From NCBI GenBank assembly GCA_016938595.1, contig JAFGUJ010000020.1, forward strand, positions 17,140 through 81,139: a DNA stretch of 64,000 bases. Reading direction: 5' to 3'. The stretch's first letter is position 1, and every line of letters begins with the position of its first letter. The position numbers and the translations under genes were made by a program. The notes below the pieces were generated by a model. It was given only the letters and a program-made list of their open reading frames with translations. It ran no database searches and had not been told where the DNA came from. Source of the DNA: Campylobacterales bacterium. Its GTDB lineage: Bacteria; Campylobacterota; Campylobacteria; Campylobacterales; Sulfurimonadaceae. Positions 6,799 to 63,120 of this stretch are shown one piece after another.

Positions 6799-8466
6799 AT
6801 GAGAAAGATAGGGATAGGGGTATGGGTACTGGCGCCGCTGCTCTGCGCCCAGGGTGCCACCACCAGTACGACCTTCGGTAATCGCCTTTCGGCCGGGATG
6901 GACGGGCATGGAAATCAGCTCTATACCCAGCAGGTGACGATTGCGACGGAAAACTATGAGGTCGACAGCTTCTGGGATCGCTTTTTTGATCCCGAGAAGA
7001 AAACGAAAAACTTCGATCAGCTTTCCACGTCGGCGACGGCCCAGCTCGTCGTCGAAGCCTCCTCGGCGTGTTCGATCGCCGGAAAAGGGGAACTTCCCGC
7101 ACAGGGGTGCTCCGGGCAGAAGCCGTTTCTGGTGAACAACGAGGCGGTAGACGGCCTCAGCGACGGGGATATGGTGAGCCTGATTTTTCAGCCGGCCAAA
7201 GACGACAAAACGGGTACGCTCCTCTACACCAGTACCGATTCCACTCTCCTCTATCCTCTCGATATCGGCCGCAACGGCGAATTCTACCAACCCACCGCAT
7301 CGGTTCAAAGCGGAAGCCGCCAGACCTTTTTTGGTTTTTTCACCGGTATTTTCGATTTCTTTTTTGACCGCCTGATCGGTGTGGATTTTTTCGGGACCCC
7401 GGAGATGGCTGATGCCAAATACGATCCCCGCTCTCCCGAAGCCGAAGACCGCCGTCAGCGCTACATCGCCAACATCATCGCCGGTGTCGATCAGGAACAC
7501 CGGATGTCGATGCCCTACAAAAGCGACCCTGCCACGCAGGTCGACGCATTTACGCGCCTGAACGATCCCGTATCCCTGCTTCATTACGCCGAAGCGAAAA
7601 AATCGACCGAAGCGGATCAGTGTAAATTCATGTTCCTGAACCTCTCTTCGGATGGGCTGATGTGCCGGATGATGAGCGGATTCGGGATGGAGGCATGGAT
7701 GCCATTTTTTACCAAAGCCAACATCACCGAGCTCGACGTCAATACAATCACGATCGATACCGAAAACGCCCTCCTCGCTGCGGCGGGAAAAGTGAGCGGG
7801 GAATCGTACCAGCAGGTCACTGCTTCGACAGACACTCAGAAACTTTCGTTTCTGCAACAGATGGTCAAGCCGATGACAGCGATGATGGACATGATGAAAA
7901 ACATGTTCTTCGGAACTTCCAAGTCGACGATCGTCGCCGACCCTGTTGAGATCACATACGATCTGAGTGCCAAGCCGATGACCCTGACGCTGGCTGTCAC
8001 GGATGACGGCACTCAGGTGGACCGGTTCGAGACCTTCAAACTCACAGGGCTGCGCTCGACGTTCGGGGACAGTGTCAACCAGTGTACAGTGAAATACTCC
8101 GGTTTTTTTGGGTTCGGAGGGTGGACCGAAACGTTTTATGAATTCAAAGGAACCACTTCAACGACCCGCACCAAAGGCTCGATCAATACCCATGCCGAAT
8201 GGATCCAGTGGTGTCAGGAAGCCAATGACAATCAGGGAATGTTCGATTACCTGATGGATTGGGAGAGCGGTGGAGTGTTCAACCCGATCAACTGGATGAA
8301 GGGGATGTGGAGTGCGATGATGTCGATGTTTTTCGGCGATTACTCGATTACCGACTTCAAAAACGCTCTCAAGCGTGGCCTGATCCTCGATCTGCAAAAA
8401 GAGGCACTGAATCCGGTTGATACGCTCAATACCACCAAAATCCGACTGATCAACGTCAAACATTAA
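6799..8466 (+). CDS. Secreted 555-aa hypothetical protein in the tad operon (candidate adhesin)
   Basis: GGAG RBS, Sec-type signal, six mature-domain Cys, repeated Met/Phe-rich segments. Confidence 0.7.
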   Translation: MRKIGIGVWVLAPLLCAQGATTSTTFGNRLSAGMDGHGNQLYTQQVTIATENYEVDSFWDRFFDPEKKTKNFDQLSTSATAQLVVEASSACSIAGKGELPAQGCSGQKPFLVNNEAVDGLSDGDMVSLIFQPAKDDKTGTLLYTSTDSTLLYPLDIGRNGEFYQPTASVQSGSRQTFFGFFTGIFDFFFDRLIGVDFFGTPEMADAKYDPRSPEAEDRRQRYIANIIAGVDQEHRMSMPYKSDPATQVDAFTRLNDPVSLLHYAEAKKSTEADQCKFMFLNLSSDGLMCRMMSGFGMEAWMPFFTKANITELDVNTITIDTENALLAAAGKVSGESYQQVTASTDTQKLSFLQQMVKPMTAMMDMMKNMFFGTSKSTIVADPVEITYDLSAKPMTLTLAVTDDGTQVDRFETFKLTGLRSTFGDSVNQCTVKYSGFFGFGGWTETFYEFKGTTSTTRTKGSINTHAEWIQWCQEANDNQGMFDYLMDWESGGVFNPINWMKGMWSAMMSMFFGDYSITDFKNALKRGLILDLQKEALNPVDTLNTTKIRLINVKH

Positions 8467-52548: not shown

Positions 52549-53411
52549 TGAAGTTCCACCCGATTTTTTCCGATCACTTTGGCTTTGGAGCGTTTGCCGT
52601 CCCTTTTTTGAATCGTAATAATATCATAGAGTGCCCCCTCTTGCGTTGCGGTTGCGCTCAATTCGAGAACGACAGAGCCGTTTCGTATCTGTACGATGAC
52701 GTTTTCGTTTCTAAGAACGAGCGGAACCGCTTCGATGTTGCGGACATTCAGGAGGGTGCCGTTTTTGAGGTTTGAACGAAACCGCACCGATTCGGAGGGA
52801 AAGGCGGTGAGGGGGATGTCTTTGAACGATGTGAAAGGGACCGGTTTGAGCAGGGTATTGGAACCGCCCAGAGTCTCTTTGCGTAAAACTCTCCGGGTGG
52901 TATGGAGGACGGGGAGGAGGGCGTCGACCGAGTAGTCGAGATAGCGTCTGAGCCCCTGGGAATTGAGGACGTAGAAGGTCCCCGAACCGTTTTGATAGAT
53001 CCGGTTGTCAAAAAACCCTTTGGCGTCATGGGGTAAAGAGTCCAGGTATCCGCGCGGGGTGATCTTCACAGCGCGAATGCGGATGGAAGGGTAGCGTTCC
53101 CGAAGTTTCTCGGCCAGCTGATCTTCAAGGGATGTCAAGTCGACGGGGCTTTTTTTGACAAAATTGACGTAGCGGATCTTCGCCGTGTCGATCGTGATGC
53201 CGTGAAGTTCGAAGGTTTTGGCCAGAGTCTGGGCATCGAGGCGGTAGAGGGTCTTCTCGGCGGGGATCCTCACAACCTCGAAACGCTTTTCCACTTCAGG
53301 AAAAAGGTCGGTAGAGACGATGGTGGGGTCGGTATAGAGATACTCTTCTTTGAGTTCATGGGCATGAAATACGGAAACCAGCAACAAGAGAAGGGGTAAA
53401 AAATTATTCAT
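52545..53411 (-). CDS. flgA: Flagellar P-ring formation chaperone FlgA
   Basis: Signal peptide, C-terminal PLVLRNENV...ATQEG...AKVIG domain; usual position before ubiX. Confidence 0.75.
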   Translation of the reverse strand: MNNFLPLLLLLVSVFHAHELKEEYLYTDPTIVSTDLFPEVEKRFEVVRIPAEKTLYRLDAQTLAKTFELHGITIDTAKIRYVNFVKKSPVDLTSLEDQLAEKLRERYPSIRIRAVKITPRGYLDSLPHDAKGFFDNRIYQNGSGTFYVLNSQGLRRYLDYSVDALLPVLHTTRRVLRKETLGGSNTLLKPVPFTSFKDIPLTAFPSESVRFRSNLKNGTLLNVRNIEAVPLVLRNENVIVQIRNGSVVLELSATATQEGALYDIITIQKRDGKRSKAKVIGKNRVELQ

Positions 53412-53661
53412 TCTTTATTTTAGCACAGTTGGCCTCGATCAAAACGGTGATCTCCTCCACTTCCAGAGCTCTGGAAACAGAGACGACCTGATCGTCTATC
53501 ACGACGGAGGGGGTGCTTTTGATGTCGTAGCCGAGCATTCGGGAAAGGTCGGAGGTTTTTTCAAAATCGATGGGGCAGGGGCTGGAAAGAATCGCTGTTT
53601 CGATGTTCGCGGCGATTTCTCGGCACAGGTCGCAGCCGGTTCCGAACAGGATGATTTTCAT
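53404..53661 (-). CDS. Small thioredoxin-like protein (MTH895/Thioredoxin_3 type)
   Basis: GTGCDLC and STPSVVIDD motifs; coupled to sulP by a TGATG overlap. Confidence 0.8.
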   Translation of the reverse strand: MKIILFGTGCDLCREIAANIETAILSSPCPIDFEKTSDLSRMLGYDIKSTPSVVIDDQVVSVSRALEVEEITVLIEANCAKIKNE

Positions 53662-55328
53662 CAAGTGTTCGCTCCCAGGACGTAGCCGGAGCGGATCAGC
53701 GCTTTGTCGATATGGTCCACGATGTTGTCGTGGCCGATCTGGTCGCCGACGTGTGATTTTTCGATGAAGCGGCGTACCTGTGGATTGACGCCTGAGAGGA
53801 TAAGGTGGGTGCCGTTTTGGCCGAGCCTCTCATGCAGCACCTCGAGGGCGTGTAGTCCCGCCGCATCGATCAGGGGGACGTAGCGCATCCGGAGGATGAA
53901 AACCTGCGGCGGTTTTTCAAAGAGGAGGAGCGTATCGACCAGCTTTTCGGCAACACCGAAAAAGAGGGGCCCCTGGATCTCGTAGACCTCGACCTCTTCG
54001 GGGATCGATTTGTTGTGGATCGAATCGGGGTCGTTCTCCGCCCGCTCGACGGCGCCGATGCGGGTTGCCTTCATCATCTGGTCGATGAAAAGGATGGATG
54101 CCAGGGCGATTCCCGCCTGGATGGCGAAGTTCAGGTCGACGAGGACGGTAAGCAGAAAGGTCGTGATGAGGACGATACGGTCGGTCCGCGGGGCTTTCAT
54201 GATTTCTCTAACGTGTTTGATCTCCGACATGTTCCACGCGACGACCATCAGGATCGCCGCGAGGGCCGCGAGAGGGACCTTGACGATGAGGGGGGAGAGG
54301 AGGAGCATGAAGACAAAGAGCCACGCCGCGTGCATCATCCCCGCTACCGGGGTGCGGGCACCGGCTTTGACGTTGGTGGCGGTGCGGGCGATGGCGCCGG
54401 TGGCGGGGAGCCCTCCGAAGATCCCGGAGGCAACGTTGGCGATCCCCTGTCCCATGAGTTCGGCGTTGGGTTTGTGGCGGGTGCCGGCCATCCCGTCGGC
54501 GACGACGGCCGAGAGGAGCGATTCGATGGCGGCGAGCGTCGCGATCGTGATCGCATCGGGAAGAAGGAGGCGGAGTTTTTCGAACGTTATCTCCGGCCAC
54601 ACGGGGGTGGGGAGGGAGGAGGGGATGGCACCGAAGCGGCTCTCGATCGTTTCGACGGGCAGGGCAAGGGCCCACACCGCCAGAGCTGAGAGGACCACGA
54701 CGATGATCGGACCGGGAATTTTGGGAATATGCCGTTTCGTCAATACGATGACACCGATCGAGGCGAGGGCGAGGATGACGGCGGTGATATTGGTATCATG
54801 CAGGTGGGCGAGATAGACCCCAAGCTTCTCAAGAAAATCGGGGGGGACGGTGTCGACATGGAGGCCGAAAAAATCGCGGATCTGCGAGAAGGCGATCAGC
54901 AGCGCGATCCCCGAGGTAAAGCCGACGATCACGGGGTAGGGGATGAATTTGATCATCTCTCCGGCCCGCAGAAAAGCCATCAGGACGAGGATTCCCCCCG
55001 CCATGATCGTGGCGAGGACCAGCCCCTCGTAGCCGTGTTTCATGGCGACCGTGGCGACCGTGACGATAAATGCCGCCGTAGGGCCGCCGATCTGGTAGCG
55101 GCTACCGCCGTGGGCAGAGATCAGAAATCCCGCGACGATCGCGGTGAAGAGCCCCCGTTCGGGGGGGAGGTTGGAAGCGATCGCAATGGCCATGGCCAGA
55201 GGGAGGGCGACGATGGCGACGGCGAGACCGGCGATCGCGTCGGCGATAAAGTCGGAACGGCTGTAGCCCTGACGTCGGAAAAGGGTGATAAGTTTCGGCT
55301 CCAGTGAGTCGTGGAGTGAGCGCAACAT
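53661..55328 (-). CDS. SulP/SLC26 anion transporter with STAS domain
   Basis: PLAMA.A, IGGPT, ESLLS, GAIART motifs and STAS (GPLFFG, IDAAG). Confidence 0.93.
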   Translation of the reverse strand: MLRSLHDSLEPKLITLFRRQGYSRSDFIADAIAGLAVAIVALPLAMAIAIASNLPPERGLFTAIVAGFLISAHGGSRYQIGGPTAAFIVTVATVAMKHGYEGLVLATIMAGGILVLMAFLRAGEMIKFIPYPVIVGFTSGIALLIAFSQIRDFFGLHVDTVPPDFLEKLGVYLAHLHDTNITAVILALASIGVIVLTKRHIPKIPGPIIVVVLSALAVWALALPVETIESRFGAIPSSLPTPVWPEITFEKLRLLLPDAITIATLAAIESLLSAVVADGMAGTRHKPNAELMGQGIANVASGIFGGLPATGAIARTATNVKAGARTPVAGMMHAAWLFVFMLLLSPLIVKVPLAALAAILMVVAWNMSEIKHVREIMKAPRTDRIVLITTFLLTVLVDLNFAIQAGIALASILFIDQMMKATRIGAVERAENDPDSIHNKSIPEEVEVYEIQGPLFFGVAEKLVDTLLLFEKPPQVFILRMRYVPLIDAAGLHALEVLHERLGQNGTHLILSGVNPQVRRFIEKSHVGDQIGHDNIVDHIDKALIRSGYVLGANT

Positions 55329-55389: not shown

Positions 55390-55656
55390 TTATTTAGAAA
55401 TGACTGCCGTTATCGTATAGCCCGTTTGGGCGACGGCGTTTTGCATCGCGCCGAGGGTGACACTCTCATCGGCGGTGACGAGGGCCGATTCGTTTTTGAA
55501 ATTGACGCGGGCTGCCCGAACCCCGGGGACCCCCAGCAGCGCTTTTTTGACCGCCAGGGTGCAGGCGATACAGTGCATCCCTCCGATCCGGAGACTCCAT
55601 TCGCGCGCTCCGAGGAGTGCCGCGCACAGGAGCAAAAGGGCCATTATTCTCCCCAT
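55390..55656 (-). CDS. MerP-like periplasmic heavy-metal-associated (HMA) protein
   Basis: Signal peptide, GMHCIAC..AVKKAL..VPGV and C-terminal GY; start 55656 preferred (55662 and 55644 possible). Confidence 0.85.
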   Translation of the reverse strand: MGRIMALLLLCAALLGAREWSLRIGGMHCIACTLAVKKALLGVPGVRAARVNFKNESALVTADESVTLGAMQNAVAQTGYTITAVISK

Positions 55657-56255
55657 ATCCATCCCTCGTAGTACGGATAGAAGAGGGCGGCAATGCTGAA
55701 GAGGAAAAGGACCCAGAACGCCAGGACGAGGAGACGGGAAGCCAGGCTGGGGGCGCAGTCGCATTCGATCTGCTTTTTGATTACCATTTTGTAAAAACCG
55801 ATCCCCAGCATCACTACAGCCGCCGCCGTGAAAATCCACCGGTAGGGCTCGAGGGCGGAAACGTTGATGATTCCGGCAAACGAGATGCCGAACACCATGA
55901 ACAGGGTCGGCACCAGGCAGCACGAGGCCGAGAGGAGCGCGGTGGCGAAGGCGGCAGTGAGGACGAGTACCGAACTGCGGCGTTCCTGAACGATCATCGC
56001 ATCGAGCGGGTTCTCCTCGTCCGGTTTTTCGACGTACCCTTTCCCCTTGACGATGACGAGGCGGGTGGCCCCGTCATCCAGACTCTCCTCGCTGAACGTA
56101 CAGCGCTGCGAGAGGGCGAAGCGCTTGCAGTTTTCGCGCCCCGAGAGGGTATTGACCTCGACGATGAGGGTCGCATCCTCGGGGAGGGCATCGAGCGCCT
56201 TTTTGGTCTCGAGCACCGGCCGCGGGCACTCCATGTCCCGGCAGTCGAGGATCAC
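55644..56255 (-). CDS. TusA/SirA/YedF sulfur-selenium carrier domain fused to a MerT-like transporter
   Basis: N-terminal LDCRDMECPRPVLETKKAL; C-terminal ASCCLVP, LEPYR, cytoplasmic CDC, three TMs, YPY; one uninterrupted ORF. Confidence 0.85.
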   Translation of the reverse strand: MILDCRDMECPRPVLETKKALDALPEDATLIVEVNTLSGRENCKRFALSQRCTFSEESLDDGATRLVIVKGKGYVEKPDEENPLDAMIVQERRSSVLVLTAAFATALLSASCCLVPTLFMVFGISFAGIINVSALEPYRWIFTAAAVVMLGIGFYKMVIKKQIECDCAPSLASRLLVLAFWVLFLFSIAALFYPYYEGWIWGE

Positions 56256-57334
56256 AGAATCCCCTTTGCGGAGCGGAACGCATAGCGGTAGGAGGCGGGA
56301 TCGAACGGGTCGAGGTATTCCTCCTCAACCTCGGCGTAGGGGTAGCCGAAGGAGTCGAGCATTCCCTGGGCGTTGGCGGGAAAGAGGTCGAAATCGCGGG
56401 CGTGGTTGAGGGCCATCCAGTTGTTCTCCCAGAAGCCGAAAAATTTCTCGGCGAGCGCGCGGGCGCGCGGGGAACTTTTCTCGATCCCCTCTTTGAGGAC
56501 CAGTTTCGTGATGTCGGCGGGGTCGCAGGGGATCCACCCGAGTTGCGGGGTGAAAAACTCGACCTTGCAGTGCTGCGCCTTCGTGATCGTCTCTCCCGCG
56601 CCGAACGCCGCGGAGAGGCGCGATTCCCCGACCCGGATCCCCATCACTTCGCGAGACGGGATCCCCGAGGCGCGCATCAGCGCGACGCACAGCGCCGACA
56701 TGTCGAGGCACTTGCCCCCCATATGGCCGTTTTTTTCCAGTTCGGCGAGCATGGCGTTGGGGCTTCCCGTACCGCATCCCATGACGCTCTCGTCGCGGTA
56801 GCTGTTGTCGACGATCCAGTCGTAGATCCTGCGGGCTTTTTTGAGGGGCTCTTTTTCAGCCCCGACGATGAGGGCGGAAATCCGGGCGACGGCGCCGTCG
56901 GTCGGGAGGTGCGCGGAGGGGGCCAGAAAGGCTTTGGACTCCTCGATCGTCTCGGGACAGATCCTCTGCGGACGCCAATTGCACTGCCGGTCGCGCAATG
57001 CAACGGTGAGGGAGAGCTCGAGTGTTTTGGAAGGGGCGCTTTTGCCCCAGTGGGCATAGAAGGTGCGGGCGCTGTATCGGTTGGCTTCGCTCTCGTAGCT
57101 TTCAGCGGCGTCGGTGCGCCACCCCGTTTTCAGGATCTCCTGAAATCCGCTGATCCGCGAGGGGAGGGGAATCCACAGGGAAACGTCGCCGCCGTGGTGG
57201 GAGAGGTCGAAACTCCAGCGAAGCTCATAAAGGGCCAGCGTTTCCGGACCCTTTTTCTGCTCCGCGGCAAACGAGGGGGTGAGACACAGGGTGGTGGCTG
57301 CGGCAGTATGGGTGATGAAGGTGCGTCGGGTCAT
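56252..57334 (-). CDS. Tat-exported transglutaminase-like (papain-fold Cys) protein
   Basis: TRRTFI Tat motif; GKC, QHC and DPAD catalytic triad motifs; additional GCG motif. Confidence 0.85.
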   Translation of the reverse strand: MTRRTFITHTAAATTLCLTPSFAAEQKKGPETLALYELRWSFDLSHHGGDVSLWIPLPSRISGFQEILKTGWRTDAAESYESEANRYSARTFYAHWGKSAPSKTLELSLTVALRDRQCNWRPQRICPETIEESKAFLAPSAHLPTDGAVARISALIVGAEKEPLKKARRIYDWIVDNSYRDESVMGCGTGSPNAMLAELEKNGHMGGKCLDMSALCVALMRASGIPSREVMGIRVGESRLSAAFGAGETITKAQHCKVEFFTPQLGWIPCDPADITKLVLKEGIEKSSPRARALAEKFFGFWENNWMALNHARDFDLFPANAQGMLDSFGYPYAEVEEEYLDPFDPASYRYAFRSAKGIL

Positions 57335-57337
57335 GGA

Positions 57338-58372
57338 TTATCCTACGATGATGTCGGTGTCGGCTTTGGGAACGACCTGTGCGACGATGGCGGCGCTGAT
57401 CCCCTCGGACAGGCACCGCTCCTCGATTTTGCGGGCATTTTCGGGACTTGCCGCGATCAGCAGCCCCCCGGAGGTCTGGGCGTCGAAGAGGAGCATCTCC
57501 ATGTCAGAACCGATGTCGCGCGAGAAGCGCACTTTTCCCTCCAGATACTCTTTGTTCGCGTAGCTTCCCGCGGGGATGATCCCCATCGAGGCCATCGGAA
57601 TGGCTTCGGGGAAATAGGGGACGGCGGAACTTTGTACCTCGATGGTGAGTTTTCCTCCGGCCATTTCGTGCAGATGCCCCAGAAAACCGAACCCCGTAAC
57701 GTCGGTGCAGGCGTGGGCGCCGAACTCGCGCGCGATCAGAGAGGCCTTGTAGTTGAGGGTCCGCATCGTCTCCGCCGTGCGGATCACCGCCGCATCGTCG
57801 AGCAGATCGGCCTTGATTGCCGTGATCAGGATCCCGAGCCCCAGAGGCTTGGTCAGGACGATCAGGTCCCCCTCACGGAGGGTATTGTTGCGCAGAATCC
57901 GCTCGGGATGGACGAATCCTGTGCAGGAGAGGCCGTAAATCATCTCGGGGGTTTCGATCGTGTGTCCCCCGACGATCACCGCGCCGCACTCGGCGACTTT
58001 GCTCTGGCCGCCGCGGAGGATTTCGGTGAGAATCTCGGTCGTATGGTTTTTGCCGTCGAATCCGACGATGTTGAGGGCGGTTTTGGCGTCACCTCCCATC
58101 GCGAAAACGTCGCTGAGAGAGTTCGCCGCCGCGATCTGGCCGTAGATGAACGGGTCGTCGACGACGGGGGTGATGAAATCGAGCGTCTGTACCATCGCCG
58201 TCGCGTCGTCGATCCGGTAGACCCCGGCGTCCTCGTTCCCCTCGAACCCCACCAGGAGATCCTTATGGAACGAGACGAGGTGGCAGGTGACGTCGCCGAG
58301 CGATCCGGGAGAGAGTTTGGCGGCGCACCCCGAGGCGCGGACGTATTTCGTCAGCTTGGCTTCAGTGTTCAT
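57338..58372 (-). CDS. selD: Selenide, water dikinase (selenophosphate synthetase), Cys form
   Basis: SGCAAKL, EDAGVY, DFITPVVDDP, ANSLSDVFAMG, TDVTGFG and DAQTSGGLL motifs. Confidence 0.95.
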   Translation of the reverse strand: MNTEAKLTKYVRASGCAAKLSPGSLGDVTCHLVSFHKDLLVGFEGNEDAGVYRIDDATAMVQTLDFITPVVDDPFIYGQIAAANSLSDVFAMGGDAKTALNIVGFDGKNHTTEILTEILRGGQSKVAECGAVIVGGHTIETPEMIYGLSCTGFVHPERILRNNTLREGDLIVLTKPLGLGILITAIKADLLDDAAVIRTAETMRTLNYKASLIAREFGAHACTDVTGFGFLGHLHEMAGGKLTIEVQSSAVPYFPEAIPMASMGIIPAGSYANKEYLEGKVRFSRDIGSDMEMLLFDAQTSGGLLIAASPENARKIEERCLSEGISAAIVAQVVPKADTDIIVG

Positions 58373-59390
58373 GAGGGGTCCTCGCACTGAGCTCTTCTTG
58401 CACTCCCCTGAGCGTTGCGGCCGTTTTGAGCGGATCGTCGTTGCACAGAGACATATCAGGGCGGAGGGTGGTTTTGTAGACCTTGTCGTAATACTGCGTC
58501 AGGAGGATTTCGGCGACACGGGAGAGCTCATTGTTTTCGAACGCGGCAATGGCCGAGGCTTTGTCGTCGCGGCTGATGTAGGGGGAGATCCGTTCCATCC
58601 GTTCCCGGAAGAAGGGCTCGTCCATCGTGTCGTACATCCGCATGATCCGCTCGATCCGCTGTTCGAGAGGGGCGGTAATTTCGACACGGAACCCCTGCGC
58701 CATCTGGCGGTTGAGAAGGGCGGGAAGGGTGATTTTGCCGATCCGTTTGCTCTCCGATTCGACAAACGCCCGGCGTGAGGGGATGAGTGAACGGTAGGCA
58801 TGGACGAGGCGGTTTTGAAACTCTTTTTGCGTCGGCTGGGAGCCGTTGACGTCGCCGAAGACCGAGCCGTAGTGGTTGGCCATTTTTTCCAGATCGAGGA
58901 CGTTCTCCAGGCTTTGGAGGAGGTCGCTTTTGCCGCACCCCGTGTTTCCGGCAAGGGTGATGAAGTCGATTTTAGGAAGGTTTTCCAAATAGTCGAGGAC
59001 GAATCGGCGGTACGATTTATATCCCCCCGTGACGCGGTCGATCCTGTAGCCGATGCTGGAGAAGATCGTCCCCAGCGAGGAGGAACGCATCCCGCCCCGG
59101 GCGCAGTAGATGGCGATTTTCGCGTTGGGGGTGAAGGCCGGGTAGAGCTCCTTGACATGGCTGGCAGCATTGACGCAGACATACGATGCCCCCTGAACAC
59201 GGGCCTCGAACGGTGAGACCTGTTTGTAGAGGGTACCGACGATACGGTGTTCTTCATCGCTCAGCGCGTAAAAATTGCGGGCTCCGGGAACACGGGATTC
59301 GCCGTATTCGTGCGGGCTTCGGGCATCGATCACCAGATCGTAGGTGTCAAGCGACTCCAGGAGAGTCTCGATAGGTATGGGTTGCATCAT
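58362..59390 (-). CDS. mnmH: tRNA 2-selenouridine synthase
   Basis: Rhodanese DARSPHEY and YCARGGMRS, GGYKSYR, P-loop GNTGCGKS, ESESKRIG, YYD. Confidence 0.94.
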   Translation of the reverse strand: MMQPIPIETLLESLDTYDLVIDARSPHEYGESRVPGARNFYALSDEEHRIVGTLYKQVSPFEARVQGASYVCVNAASHVKELYPAFTPNAKIAIYCARGGMRSSSLGTIFSSIGYRIDRVTGGYKSYRRFVLDYLENLPKIDFITLAGNTGCGKSDLLQSLENVLDLEKMANHYGSVFGDVNGSQPTQKEFQNRLVHAYRSLIPSRRAFVESESKRIGKITLPALLNRQMAQGFRVEITAPLEQRIERIMRMYDTMDEPFFRERMERISPYISRDDKASAIAAFENNELSRVAEILLTQYYDKVYKTTLRPDMSLCNDDPLKTAATLRGVQEELSARTPHEH

Positions 59391-59396
59391 AACGGA

Positions 59397-59405
59397 ATTT
59401 TATCA
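59397..59405 (-). promoter_or_regulatory. Extended -10 promoter giving a probably leaderless selU operon transcript
   Basis: TGa-TAAAAT ends 6 nt before ATG 59390; no RBS. Confidence 0.55.
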
Positions 59406-59468: not shown

Positions 59469-60464
59469 TCAGAAATAGTAATACAAGATCATCTTTCCCC
59501 CGTCGGAGAGATCGGTCCGCACATACGCCAGATCCAGGGCAAAACCGTTTTTGAAATCATACGTCCCCCCCGCGAGGAGCCGGTAGGCGGGTGAATCCTC
59601 CTGATCGAGCCAGAGGGCGTAGAGAGAGGAATAGACCCATCCAAAGGGTTCTTTCTGCGTCGCTTTGAGGTAGCGGTAGCGGCTATCCTCGTAGGTACGG
59701 AACCATTCGGCGATGAGGGTGAGGTCGGTGGGGCTTTGGTAGCGCAGTCCCAGCAGGGTGCTTTTGTCTCCTCCTTTGACGCCGAAATCGGCGTGGAGTT
59801 CGAGGCCGTTCCCGACGTCGGTCGAGAGATCGGCACCGAAGGCGTTTTCGGCGAGAATGAGGTCGATGTCGCTTTGCCCGGCGAGGAGATAGAGCTTGGC
59901 GCCGCCGCGGCTGTCGGTGGAGGCAAAATGGTCGCGGTTTTCACCGATGCCGGGGAGCCACAACAGATCGAGGGTGGCGGCGGAGACGATCCCCTCTTCG
60001 GGGGTGCGGGTCATCTGGGCATGGGCCATCCAGAATCCCTCGCGGGAGAGATCGGGGTAGATCGGGTCTTTGGGGCGCTCGAAAAAGGCCAGCGGGGAGT
60101 AGGCATACCCTTTTCCCCACCGCAGCACTTTTTTTCCCAGATCGAGCGATTCGCGCTCATCCCCGAACCGCTGTCTCAGTTCGTTGAGAAGAACCTCCTC
60201 ATCACGGGTGGTGCGGCTGTCGTCACGGTAGAATGCGGAGAGGTCGGCGTGGAGGTTTATGGGAGATTCGTCCCATGTCCCCTGGAGATTAAGCTCGTTG
60301 GCGGAGCGGGCGAAACGGCCGTTGTCGCTCCACTGAAGCGTATTGTCGCTGCGCAGGTAGCCGTGGTGCTCGAAACGCTTTTTTTCGAAGGTTCCGGCAT
60401 CGAAGGAGAACTCCTCCTCTCCCCAGATGAGGAGGGGGAGGAGGAGACACAGCAGGGGTCTCAT
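59469..60464 (-). CDS. Predicted outer-membrane beta-barrel protein
   Basis: Signal peptide, GKKVLRWGKG..Y.P motif, alternating amphipathic strands, C-terminal YYF. Confidence 0.65.
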   Translation of the reverse strand: MRPLLCLLLPLLIWGEEEFSFDAGTFEKKRFEHHGYLRSDNTLQWSDNGRFARSANELNLQGTWDESPINLHADLSAFYRDDSRTTRDEEVLLNELRQRFGDERESLDLGKKVLRWGKGYAYSPLAFFERPKDPIYPDLSREGFWMAHAQMTRTPEEGIVSAATLDLLWLPGIGENRDHFASTDSRGGAKLYLLAGQSDIDLILAENAFGADLSTDVGNGLELHADFGVKGGDKSTLLGLRYQSPTDLTLIAEWFRTYEDSRYRYLKATQKEPFGWVYSSLYALWLDQEDSPAYRLLAGGTYDFKNGFALDLAYVRTDLSDGGKMILYYYF

Positions 60465-61171
60465 CAGCGCAGGTCGTCCAGCTTGGAGAGGTTTTCCAGA
60501 GTAAAGACGGCGTTGTCGAGGGGGCGTTTTTTGATCGACCCGTAGACTATGATCGACTTGAACCCTTTTTGGAGCGGGCTGGTCGTCTCCAGCACCGAGG
60601 GGCGGACGATCCCCCCGCCGAAATCTTTGGGTTTGAGGTAGCGGATCGTTTTGAGGACGATCCCCCCTGCGATGCAGTCGATCGAGGTGGGGAAGAGGCT
60701 TTTTTTGTCGACGTTCATCCGGAGCTTTTCATAGGTGCTCTCGGGGGTTTTGGCGACCAGATCGAGGTGATAGAGCTCGGGAGTCTCTTTTTGGGAAGCG
60801 ATTTTGTACTCTGCGCCGAAATCGACCTGCATGATGTCGGCGTTGTTGAAAACGCCCCCCGTGACACTCTGCATCGAGGCGATCCGCAGCGGTTTGGCAA
60901 TCCCGGGGATGTAGAGCCACATGTTCTGATCGACCCGCAGCGTGGCGCGCCCTTTGTCGCTGGCGGGGGAGAGGAAGAGGGAAGCGACTTTGGTCTTGTC
61001 TTTTTTTACCATGTACATGACGAACTCCTTGCGCGTTCCGTCAGGCTCGATGTTGATCAGCTGCCGCACGCTCTCTGTGGAGAAGGGGTTGAGCTTTTTG
61101 TCGATCTGCTCGAGCAAATCGGCACCGAAGGCCAAGGCAGGGAAGAGGAAAAAGGGGAGTAAATATTTCAT
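60464..61171 (-). CDS. LolA-like outer-membrane lipoprotein-sorting family protein
   Basis: Signal peptide; FLSPASDKG, MWLYIP, RI, F..AD and VFT..NL motifs. Confidence 0.78.
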   Translation of the reverse strand: MKYLLPFFLFPALAFGADLLEQIDKKLNPFSTESVRQLINIEPDGTRKEFVMYMVKKDKTKVASLFLSPASDKGRATLRVDQNMWLYIPGIAKPLRIASMQSVTGGVFNNADIMQVDFGAEYKIASQKETPELYHLDLVAKTPESTYEKLRMNVDKKSLFPTSIDCIAGGIVLKTIRYLKPKDFGGGIVRPSVLETTSPLQKGFKSIIVYGSIKKRPLDNAVFTLENLSKLDDLR

Positions 61172-61172
61172 G

Positions 61173-62384
61173 TTAGCTCCTTAGGGCATCGACGGGGTTC
61201 ATGCGCGCCGCTTTGAGGGCGGGATAGAGGGAAGCGAGGGCGGAGACGACAATGACGAGGACGCCGATGAACGCTACCTGCGTGCACGCCAGGACGGGAG
61301 AGAGGAGGATGTCGTCCTGGCGTCCGAAACGGATCGTCATGTCGCCGATTCCGTAGACGACCCCGTAGGAGAGGGCGGTGCCGACGACGAGTCCGAAGAT
61401 CCCCAGCAACATCCCCTCAAATAAAAAGGTGCTCAGAATAAACGAAGAGGGAGTTCCGATCGCGCTCATGGTGCCGATCTCCTTGATCCGCTCATACACG
61501 CTCATGATCATCACGTTGAGGATCGAGATCAGGACGATCGAGATGAGGATGATCTGGATGGAAATGCTCATCAGGTCGATCATTTTGGCGATGCTGCTAA
61601 AGGGGCTCAGCTCCTCCCATCCGTGAATTTCCAGAGGAGGTTTATTTGAAGCCAGCAGAAGGTGCGTGAGCTTTTGGCGGATTTGGGGAAGGGCGGAGAG
61701 GTCGTGAAGGCGGATGGCGATTTCGTTGGCCTCGTTCTGGTGGAGCCGCAGCAGGGATCGCGAATCGTCGATATGGATGTAGCCATCACGCCCTCCGGGG
61801 CCGGAGATACTCTGGAGGATGCCGGCGACTTTGAAGGTGCGGGCGTTCATCGAACCGATGTTGTTGGTGACGACGAGGACGACGCTGTCGCCGATTTTGA
61901 GGTTCATCCCTTTGGCGACGATGTCGGGGATCAGCACTTCTCCGTGGGCGAAGTCGGCGTTTCCGATGATACGGGAGCGCAGCTGCGGCAGGGTCGAGTG
62001 CTCGATGGCGGGGTCGATTCCGTTGAGACGGAGGTTGGTGGAGGTGTCGAAATTGCTGATCAGGGCCGAATGTTTCAAGCGAAGCGAATACGATACGATC
62101 CCCTCCATGGCGTCGAGTTCGCGCTCTATCGTGCGGAGTTTGTGTTCGGGGATGTTTTTGTCGAGGGGCATGTTGTCGAGACTCGCGACGTACCCCTGCC
62201 GGTGAATCTGCAGATGCCCCAGCATGCTGTCGGTGATCTGGCCGATCATGTAGTGTTTGAAGCTTCCCGAAAAAGCGGCAAAGAGGAGGACAAACATGAC
62301 CCCGATCGCGATCAGGGCGGTTGTGAGGATCATTCTGCGGCGGTTGCGTTTTAACGTGCGGTAGGCGATTTTTAGGCTTTTCAT
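61173..62384 (-). CDS. ABC transporter permease (MacB/LolC/FtsX type)
   Basis: 1+3 TM topology, RNRRR, ERIKEIGTMSAIG and PALKAARMNPVDALR. Confidence 0.9.
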   Translation of the reverse strand: MKSLKIAYRTLKRNRRRMILTTALIAIGVMFVLLFAAFSGSFKHYMIGQITDSMLGHLQIHRQGYVASLDNMPLDKNIPEHKLRTIERELDAMEGIVSYSLRLKHSALISNFDTSTNLRLNGIDPAIEHSTLPQLRSRIIGNADFAHGEVLIPDIVAKGMNLKIGDSVVLVVTNNIGSMNARTFKVAGILQSISGPGGRDGYIHIDDSRSLLRLHQNEANEIAIRLHDLSALPQIRQKLTHLLLASNKPPLEIHGWEELSPFSSIAKMIDLMSISIQIILISIVLISILNVMIMSVYERIKEIGTMSAIGTPSSFILSTFLFEGMLLGIFGLVVGTALSYGVVYGIGDMTIRFGRQDDILLSPVLACTQVAFIGVLVIVVSALASLYPALKAARMNPVDALRS

Positions 62385-63058
62385 CCGTTGCTCCGATCAT
62401 CCATAATCCGGCCGTCCTGGAGGGTGACGATCCGTCTGGCTTCGGTCATGATTTTGGTGTCGTGAGTCGAAAAGACGAAGGTGGTGTTGAATTTCTCCTG
62501 CATCTGTTTCATCAGGTCGATCACCTTTTTGGCCGAGACGCTGTCGAGGTTGGCGGTCGGCTCATCGGCGAGGATGATCCGGGGATTGACGACGAGGGCG
62601 CGCGCGACCGCGACCCGCTGTTTCTGCCCGCCGCTGAGCTGGTCGGGGTATTTGTCGATCTGGTCCAGCATCCCGATCGCTTCGAGCACCTCTTTGACCC
62701 GTTCGCGGGTGTTTTTTTCTCCGAGGATGACCGAGAGGGGGAACTCGACGTTTTCATAGACGGTGAAGCTCTCGATCAGGTTGAAATCCTGAAAGATGAA
62801 CCCCAGATGTTCGGCACGGAAGCTCAGCGCCTCTTTGTTTTTCAGGGACGATACGATCGTGCCGTCGATCGTGATCTCTCCCGAATCGGGTTTGTCGAGG
62901 CAGCCGATCAGGTTAAGGAGGGTGCTTTTGCCGCTGCCGCTGGGGCCGACAATCGCGACGAACTCTCCGTCCCCGATCGTGAGATCAAGCCCTTCGATGA
63001 CGGGGGTGGTCACTTCCCCTTCCTGATAATGTTTGACCAGTTTGACTACCTGTATCAT
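62381..63058 (-). CDS. ABC transporter ATP-binding protein (LolD type)
   Basis: [27 protein letters not shown] and STHD motifs. Confidence 0.93.
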
Positions 63059-63120
63059 AAGCAAATCCAATATCATAAAATATAACAGAGGAGTATAGCA
63101 TAAAAACATTTCTGAAGGAA

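Follow-up and report, generated by a model that had tools for sequence, protein, structure and literature searches.

An apparently undescribed fusion of a TusA-family carrier to a MerT-like membrane domain marks a candidate selenium-acquisition module in Campylobacterales

In mercury resistance of the mer type, the metal travels along a relay of cysteines, from C33/C36 of MerP through C24/C25 and then C76/C82 of MerT to MerA, as PMC5715351 describes. A second relay takes up thiosulfate: PMC11073785 reports that the TusA-family protein YeeD is essential for uptake by YeeE, that its CPxP cysteine becomes modified, and that the two proteins are joined in one chain in Corynebacterium. For selenium, YedE figures as a predicted transporter in Lin et al. 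(PMC5322559), and two reviews (PMC9312934, 2022; PMC13188914, 2026) hold that a specific transport system with high affinity for selenium has yet to be identified in prokaryotes. Here we describe a gene that joins, in one protein, an N-terminal TusA-family domain of the YedF type and a MerT-like membrane domain. It lies in a 64,000-nucleotide stretch of DNA, hereafter the window, from a Campylobacterales bacterium of the Sulfurimonadaceae (assembly GCA_016938595.1, contig JAFGUJ010000020.1, positions 17,140 to 81,139 of the forward strand). The fusion marks a candidate selenium-acquisition module and is apparently undescribed: neither a TusA::MerT fusion nor the gene trio around it was found in the literature searched, although supplements and subscription papers could mention them.

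The gene is a single 203-residue open reading frame without a frameshift, as the original prediction had it, uninterrupted on the minus strand; its start and the stop of the upstream gene share 4 nucleotides (nt), and the plus strand at the same coordinates holds an unrelated frame (Table 1). Both halves score above their Pfam gathering cut-offs, TusA (PF01206) at residues 2-70 with 48.1 against 28.6 bits and MerT (PF02411) at residues 98-199 with 42.3 against 32.9 bits. The complete TusA fold with a CPRP motif (C10) that had been proposed for residues 1-71 or so is borne out by this match and by structural comparison: the predicted domain has the CPxP motif and the two-helix/four-strand fold, and it matches the SirA-like protein 3hz7 (template modeling score 0.88 by target length), YeeD in 8k1r, and TusA in 3lvj. 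AlphaFold gave the TusA domain a predicted local distance difference test score (pLDDT) of about 82 and the whole fusion a predicted template modeling score of 0.35, a low confidence at which no contact between the domains is readable. Hydropathy shows a soluble N-domain, no signal peptide, and three hydrophobic stretches, a layout consistent with placement of the carrier cysteine C10 at the cytoplasmic exit of the membrane domain. The fusion has no in-frame TGA, reaches 28.4 bits against a cut-off of 375 with the selenoprotein model NF045683, and has no match to PF04143 (YeeE/YedE).

Proteins with the same two domains are numerous. Both Pfam families were assigned to 93 of 100 homologous clusters in a protein search with the window fusion, and to 105 of the 120 matches listed (141 found) in another search that started from a fusion of the Nautiliaceae type; Caminibacter, Lebetimonas, Nautilia, Nitratifractor, and Sulfurospirillum are sources among the matches listed. 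The domain junction is bridged without insertions or deletions by contigs from three sequencing runs belonging to three studies; one of the runs (X1) may be the source sample. These two sets of homologues and the intact junction rule out an assembly artifact or a split gene, and the TusA::MerT fusion is real and conserved. No full-length fusion was found among plasmid records. C10, C112, and C113 are invariant in all 198 fusions (93 close and 105 distant), and a loop cysteine aligned to C167 is kept in 197 of them. The MerT-like motifs that had drawn attention to the C-terminal half are all present in the window protein, namely ASCC (C112-C113), LEPYR, a CxC loop (CDC, C165/C167), and a final YPY (YPYY); as marks of the family they stood only in part, in that exact LEPYR is kept in 16 of the 93 close and none of the 105 distant fusions, and the CxC spacing is lineage-specific (93/93 close versus 0/105 distant), as is C43.

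Of 301 Campylobacterales genomes searched with the MerT domain, 77 had a match, and about 14 kb was fetched around 40 of these matches, picked for spread. In 39 of the 40 loci a transglutaminase-like gene lies directly upstream of the MerT gene, and in 35 of these 39 a MerP-like open reading frame was detected; we call this enzyme/MerT/MerP-like set the module. The MerT gene is fused to a TusA domain in 13 module loci and unfused in 26, one of the unfused (L096) being a locus where the open reading frame caller took the wrong frame for the MerT gene. The fortieth locus (L090) has a mer-type MerTP-like protein and no transglutaminase-like enzyme. Within the MerT-domain tree, fused proteins need at least five changes across starred branches, and a single clade of fused domains is rejected (approximately unbiased test, p = 0.0005; L090 left out). 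A single origin of the fusion is thus rejected for the MerT domain, and the fusion was made or lost repeatedly. Five mer-operon MerTs form a starred clade of their own in this tree, where 12 of 48 module proteins have only one loop cysteine. The MerT domain of the window fusion falls below every NCBIfam MerT equivalog cut-off, with 47 against 150 bits for NF010314 and 26.1 against 130 bits for NF033560. As a separate observation, the L090 protein (6971-7987, genome G156) carries a C-terminal rhodanese-like domain and sits beside an arsenite-methyltransferase-like gene, a further case of MerT joined to a sulfurtransferase-type domain but in another setting.

A rival view takes the fusion for a chance event in which a piece of yedF became joined to the adjacent gene with no effect on function, or for an artifact of assembly. 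Unfused forms are indeed the commoner ones among the sampled loci, and frameshifts split the fusion in one member of the genus Sulfuricurvum (G317) and in L028/P0099. Against this stand the invariance of C10 in every fusion aligned, the occurrence of fusions in at least eight family-level groups and not in one clade, and the junction found intact in three runs; we consider neutral joining very improbable.

The TusA half is of a particular kind. Its best NCBIfam match is selenium_YedF (TIGR03527), at 51.5 bits against a cut-off of 110; the model is matched only at positions 1-88 of 194, and the C-terminal DsrE-like domain of YedF is absent from the fusion. The YeeD model reaches only 12.8 bits. 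Identity over the N-domain is 41/69 and 38/69 to two Sulfuricurvum YedFs and 23-32/69 to three other YedFs, compared with at most 18/71 to five stand-alone TusA-like proteins. In a TusA-domain tree the fusion domains sit amid YedF domains, apart from two FdhU-type TusA rows, although this tree, with 72 columns and one wrong row (L131), is too unresolved to count origins of the fusion. In Nautiliaceae-type loci yedF itself often lies directly before the enzyme gene. The resemblance to the YedF N-domain noted in the original prediction thus holds up well, and judged by sequence comparison the TusA half is a derivative of that domain.

The genomic setting points the same way. The window operon runs selU-selD-enzyme-fusion-MerP-like, an order kept, as far as the contigs reach, in 29 of 29 species-genome loci, mostly of Sulfuricurvum. 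To judge from named homologues of 76-96% identity, the source organism is most likely a Sulfuricurvum too. In the source genome, whose 89% completeness bounds every absence given for it here, selU is the only selenophosphate user found, and no selA, selB, or tRNA-Sec scores over cut-off. Across the 301 Campylobacterales genomes the enzyme occurs in 85 (in one of them, G026, as a weak match of 25%) and selD in 164; all 85 enzyme genomes have selD, and the enzyme is found in none of the 137 selD-negative genomes. The association has P of about 7e-15 when stratified by family and 0.003 when one event is counted per family, to be read with the caution that related genomes are not independent. Within Sulfuricurvum the fusion is present in 20 of 41 genomes (once frameshifted), comprising 20 of 28 selD-positive and 0 of 13 selD-negative genomes; a YedF match exists in four of the eight selD-positive genomes without the fusion, and one genome has both. 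The distance between the enzyme gene and selD is at most 10 kb in 40 of 84 genomes; the two share a contig in 56 of these 84, a set that includes all 40, and are on different contigs in 25, and three have no listed coordinates. Among 79 of the 85 module genomes that were tested for selA and MerA, low-completeness and weak ones being left out, selA is found in 72. Outside the phylum, 66 plasmid or chromid records carry the enzyme: among seven inspected, the gene adjoins selD, near selA/selB, in Sinorhizobium, Terrarubrum, Phyllobacterium, and Cupriavidus (Alpha- and Betaproteobacteria), and records from Pasteurella and Providencia hold the same enzyme/MerT/MerP-like trio. A selenium link had been implied by the N-domain; the operon and the co-occurrence with selD make it much stronger than sequence alone allowed, and we are confident that the module is linked to selenium metabolism. 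Two Sulfuricurvum genomes (G301, G313) have two selD copies each, the first within the selU-module operon and the second inside or close to a selAB island, which suggests separately acquired selenium traits.

The same distribution bears on a role in sulfur metabolism. The module might import sulfane sulfur, derived from polysulfide or thiosulfate, for 2-thiouridine (the selenouridine precursor) or for Mo/W-cofactor maturation of formate dehydrogenase, and its tie to selD would then be indirect. TusA-family proteins are sulfur carriers; the source genome has no second TusA-family domain and no YeeE/YedE-family gene (PF04143) that was found, so that the fusion would hold its only such carrier; rhodanese fusions of the enzyme (see below) and the fdh genes near the module in several loci fit as well. 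Yet the module is missing from every selD-negative genome, in the order and in the genus, though all of these organisms need sulfur, and the domain is of the YedF type, not the TusA/YeeD type, which makes sulfur import distinctly improbable.

Mercury calls for separate treatment. Classical mercury resistance is rejected, since merA and Hg-merR are missing: neither MerA nor Hg-MerR scores over cut-off in the source genome. MerA is over cut-off in 3 of the 79 module genomes tested, in none of them beside the module, and mercury reduction is unlikely. One review notes MerA as missing from Epsilonproteobacteria in that review's data set (PMC3466566). A subtler proposal is that a soft metal (Hg, Cu, or Ag) is handled for the benefit of selenium metabolism, whether by import of Hg(II) and its neutralization as HgSe with SelD-derived selenide or by shielding of SelD, selenocysteine, or selenouridine, in a detoxification that dispenses with MerA. 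Such a role would account for the dependence on selD as well as for the missing MerA; the module retains every cysteine of the Mer relay, and MerT-family selenoproteins exist (NF045683) that reviews tie to metals. On the other side, the 39 loci, where neighboring reading frames are partly annotated, showed no metal-responsive regulator next to the module; the setting is chromosomal and housekeeping-like, and extends to host-associated Pasteurella; the acceptor is a sulfurtransferase-type CPxP domain and not an HMA domain; and the leader described below looks selenium-responsive. We rate metal handling as unlikely.

The partner enzyme offers further hints. It matches Transglut_core (PF01841) at 67.3 bits against a cut-off of 23, and its structure model (pLDDT 92.8) has 3isr and TgpA as closest folds. 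A putative triad, C209-H255-D271, aligns with that of TgpA (6g49), and in a 54-sequence alignment C209 is kept in 47, H255 in 52, D271 in 53, C187 of a GCGxG motif in 50, and C256 in 51 sequences; in 39 loci a twin-arginine (RR) motif is kept along with all five residues. From its N-terminus the enzyme is likely exported by the twin-arginine translocation (Tat) pathway. A search with the enzyme returned 550 cluster representatives at E<=1e-10, and among 24 longer representatives scanned, rhodanese domains occur in 7 and a redoxin domain in 1; in Terrarubrum a TlpA gene precedes the enzyme gene. Together these neighbors and fusions favor thiol or chalcogen chemistry over cross-linking. The rhodanese-bearing forms (P0150, P0155, P0184, P0207, P0216, P0229, P0252) join the enzyme family to one to three rhodanese domains in proteins of 507-1442 residues, some with Ig-like/fn3 surface domains, and from this architecture may be surface-exposed scavengers of sulfur or selenium. 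ESM Atlas and cluster names for the enzyme read only "transglutaminase family" or "hypothetical", and no relatives were found on viral contigs. The only mention came from PMC5322559, whose STRING table for YedF lists one transglutaminase-like gene, possibly of the module enzyme family. A selenocysteine form of the enzyme is not supported, although a rare one is conceivable. TGA falls exactly at the C187 codon in L122 (1901-3001; genome G245, 79% complete) and in L150; one of the two genes is decayed, neither shows a hairpin resembling a selenocysteine insertion sequence (SECIS), and in G245 selA and selB were not found at that completeness. A metagenome pattern scan gave five loci, one of them of the enzyme family and apparently decayed, and a shorter pattern run over 251 genomes gave matches at background level.

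The gene set is thus likely to be, as we predict, part of a bacterial selenium-uptake route. Combining the Mer relay and YeeE-YeeD precedents with the distribution of the module, we infer the substrate, the inward direction, and each transfer step as follows. The Tat-exported enzyme would capture or release a reduced selenium species in the periplasm on C187, C209, and C256; its repeated fusion to rhodanese points to sulfur or selenium transfer rather than to protein cross-linking, although the exact chemistry of this step is a doubtful guess. The CxxC motif of the MerP-like protein might then pass selenium on, bound as selenotrisulfide or perselenide, to the C112-C113 pair of membrane helix 1, from where it would go on to a cytoplasmic loop cysteine. 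There the tethered C10 of the TusA domain would take it as perselenide, standing in MerA's place much as YeeD does for YeeE, and deliver it to C16 of SelD, whose selenophosphate would in this organism go to SelU for 2-selenouridine in tRNA. In loci with an unfused MerT, the work of C10 would fall to free YedF or another carrier. SelD is the likely acceptor, and we lean toward the view that the fusion is the membrane step of such a thiol relay, importing selenium and feeding selenophosphate synthetase.

Regulation in relatives adds to this picture. A hairpin with a 5-bp stem and an AGGYU loop gave 49 matches in 40 loci, compared with a background of 24 matches per 3.6 Mb on both strands of the source genome; the enzyme gene directly follows 23 of these matches, yedF follows 3, and a double-cubane reductase/activator pair follows 5. 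Five stem pairs are changed on both sides while the loop is nearly fixed in 20 leaders, a set selected for having the hairpin, so that this covariation is not a probability. The element resembles the SECIS after the UGA in selD of the same loci (5-bp stem, NGGNN loop), and Rfam gave no match to the hairpin leaders of 8 loci. Neither the window operon nor any of 25 Sulfuricurvum selU leaders has it, and it is missing as well from the loci fetched for module genomes without selA; Sulfuricurvum selAB islands do have it. In Escherichia coli a selAB leader element binds SelB-GTP-Sec-tRNA and represses selAB, according to a preprint (bioRxiv 10.64898/2026.03.03.709296). By analogy, SelB would bind the predicted hairpin, and when selA-positive relatives have ample selenium, SelB-Sec-tRNA likely represses the module through this leader.

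Such a leader bears on direction. The relay could instead export excess selenide, buffer selenium, or feed a periplasmic target, with the enzyme as final acceptor or user. Thiol exchange is reversible, co-occurrence and gene neighborhood give no direction, export was raised for YedE by Lin et al. (PMC5322559), and the enzyme stands beside selD without MerT or MerP in Alpha- and Betaproteobacteria. Repression at abundant Sec-tRNA, as by the E. coli selAB-type leader, fits uptake better, however, and the only characterized MerP-MerT and YeeE-YeeD relays import; we think an outward or buffering role unlikely.

Several observations weigh against an inward selenium relay built on this module and should be set beside it. 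In the alpha- and betaproteobacterial stretches fetched, the enzyme is without MerT or MerP, and the Pasteurella and Providencia copies (the trio) and the Salipiger copy (the enzyme alone) have no sel gene within 8 kb. The enzyme lies more than 10 kb from selD in 16 of the 56 same-contig pairs. As many as 79 of the 164 selD-positive genomes lack the module, which is therefore not required for selenium use, and most sampled module loci, as counted above, do without the fusion. YedE/FdhT is found in 22 of 79 module genomes and in 14 of 79 selD-positive genomes without the module, so that a mutually exclusive alternative to YedE/FdhT is not supported. The hairpin was not found in 7 plasmid loci, and most copies lie 70-95 nt upstream of the start codon, whereas the E. 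coli selAB element abuts the ribosome site; the mechanism of the hairpin may differ accordingly. Finally, MerT-type relays are known to carry only soft cations, and selenium species are anionic or covalently bound.

Other genes stand under the same hairpin or beside the same loci. In Sulfuricurvum selAB islands (L113, 11582-13937, minus strand; L114, 6713-9068; genomes G306 and G313; also L061) it precedes a gene for a 406-residue protein without a Pfam match; next come an acyl-CoA-dehydrogenase-like gene and one for a phosphonate-type substrate-binding protein, and the set may form a further selenium-regulated acquisition unit. A second hairpin in these islands lies before a 500-residue 4Fe-4S protein of an fdh cluster. 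The pair of double-cubane reductase (NF040772) and CoA-activator-type ATPase occurs with the module or sel genes, under the same hairpin, in L070, L074, L092, and L098, and similar double-cubane/ATPase genes are listed in a STRING table for YedE/YedF within Lin et al. (PMC5322559). A trio of similar size, with a periplasmic binding protein, a histidine kinase, and a response regulator, lies beside the module or selAB in L061, L071, L073, L077, L078, L081, L092, L094, L095, and L113, annotated as such in L061, L077, and L113 only; it could sense formate or selenium. A 1155-residue molybdopterin oxidoreductase with a 4Fe-4S domain stands between yedF and the enzyme gene in L066 (8769-12236), and a dimethyl sulfoxide/thiosulfate-reductase-like pair lies inside the module in L060; both are candidate selenium-oxyanion reductases.

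Table 1. Features of the selU-selD-module operon, in coordinates of the window
Feature	Position	Strand	Basis or remark
TusA(YedF-N)::MerT-like fusion, 203 aa	55644..56255	minus (56255->55644)	GTG start; Pfam, NCBIfam, homologues
TusA/SirA domain, aa 1-71, CPxP Cys10 at 56226-56228	56043..56255	minus	Pfam, fold, YedF identity
MerT-like membrane domain, aa 94-203	55644..55976	minus	Pfam, hydropathy, conservation
Cys112-Cys113 in MerT-like helix 1	55917-55922	minus	sequence, conservation
Cys165/Cys167, loop between helices 2 and 3	55755-55763	minus	sequence, conservation
MerP-like/HMA protein, 88 aa	55390..55656	minus	signal-peptide-like N-terminus, MHCxxC; overlaps fusion stop
Transglutaminase-like cysteine enzyme, 360 aa, twin-arginine N-terminus	56252..57334	minus	Pfam Transglut_core
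selD, selenophosphate synthetase, Cys form (C16)	57338..58369	minus	TIGR00476 356 bits, cut-off 125
selU/mnmH, tRNA 2-selenouridine synthase	58362..59390	minus	TIGR03167 318.8 bits
Extended -10-like box	59397..59405	minus	6 nt before selU ATG

Within the operon itself (Table 1), the MerP-like protein matches Pfam HMA at 51.7 bits and the MerP model at 49 against a cut-off of 92.6 bits, and both cysteines of its CxxC motif are invariant in 37 sequences. In nearly all of 25 related loci a box like that of the window operon precedes the selU ATG by about 4-9 nt, and from this spacing the whole operon is likely transcribed as a leaderless mRNA. Directly after the module (53404-55328, minus strand) come a SulP-family anion transporter with a STAS domain and an MTH895/ArsE-type thioredoxin-like gene, and the source genome has a second SulP and a second thioredoxin of this type on the same contig. 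These two genes were rejected as parts of the module: in 29 related loci, sulP follows it once and the thioredoxin-like gene never. Upstream of selU (59469-63109, minus strand) lie an ABC ATPase, an FtsX-type permease, a LolA-like protein, and a 331-residue protein without a Pfam or NCBIfam match, none of them kept beside the operon in related loci.

With three genes and a handful of invariant cysteines, the module offers a candidate selenium transporter that is small and open to direct test. The fusion acts as a Rosetta stone, tying a membrane step to a selenium carrier. If the proposal is right, the YedF N-domain gains a concrete job as carrier from transporter to SelD, a widespread family of transglutaminase-like orphans acquires a function in selenium metabolism, and a chalcogen can be carried by a MerT-type relay. 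Many chromosomal "merT/merP" annotations in Campylobacterota and Pasteurellaceae would then have nothing to do with mercury resistance, which matters for metal-resistance surveys. A bolder version, which we put forward tentatively, would see in the fusion the membrane core of a dedicated high-affinity selenium importer that hands the element covalently from cysteine to cysteine and is made of an exported transglutaminase-fold capture enzyme, a MerP-like shuttle, a MerT-like channel, and a tethered YedF domain leading to SelD, with SECIS-like feedback in selenocysteine users; the mercury-resistance transporters might then be a side branch of a wider family of chalcogen/soft-ion thiol relays.

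Comparison with described systems places the fusion between several families. By Pfam it is a member of both the TusA and the MerT family; by their own tests it is not YedF, a mer-operon MerT, or YeeE-YeeD. With YedF (SirA-like plus DsrE-like, TIGR03527) it shares the N-domain and an occurrence only alongside selD, and it differs in having a MerT-like domain in place of the DsrE-like one. YedE/FdhT belongs to an unrelated membrane family and co-occurs freely with the module. The MerT/CopZ fusion-like selenoprotein (NF045683) and the MerT-family CU selenoproteins likewise connect the MerT family with selenium; their selenium is their own selenocysteine residue, whereas the fusion has none and its genome has no selenocysteine machinery over cut-off. 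The periplasmic domain of TgpA (6g49) and the Cytophaga protein 3isr share fold and Cys-His-Asp triad with the partner enzyme at about 15% identity, to which the enzyme adds C187, C256, a Tat signal, rhodanese fusions, and linkage to selD, and it has no membrane anchor.

The two relays of the opening remain the closest models. Like the MerP-MerT-MerA system of the Tn21/Tn501 type, the module has a periplasmic CxxC protein, adjacent genes in merT-merP order, and a membrane protein of three helices, the first with a Cys-Cys pair, that also has loop cysteines; unlike it, the module has no MerA or Hg-MerR, scores under the MerT and MerP equivalog cut-offs, spaces its loop cysteines differently, carries an N-terminal YedF-type domain, has a transglutaminase-like partner, and is chromosomal and selD-linked. 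With YeeE-YeeD (TsuA-TsuB) it would share, if the predicted orientation is right, the pairing of a cysteine-relay membrane transporter with a TusA-family CPxP carrier on the cytoplasmic side, two parts that some bacteria make as a single YeeE-YeeD protein; here, by contrast, the transporter is MerT-like, the carrier is N-terminal and YedF-type, two periplasmic partners are present, and the context is selenium. By analogy with both, we predict that the fusion combines the workings of the Mer relay with those of YeeE-YeeD.

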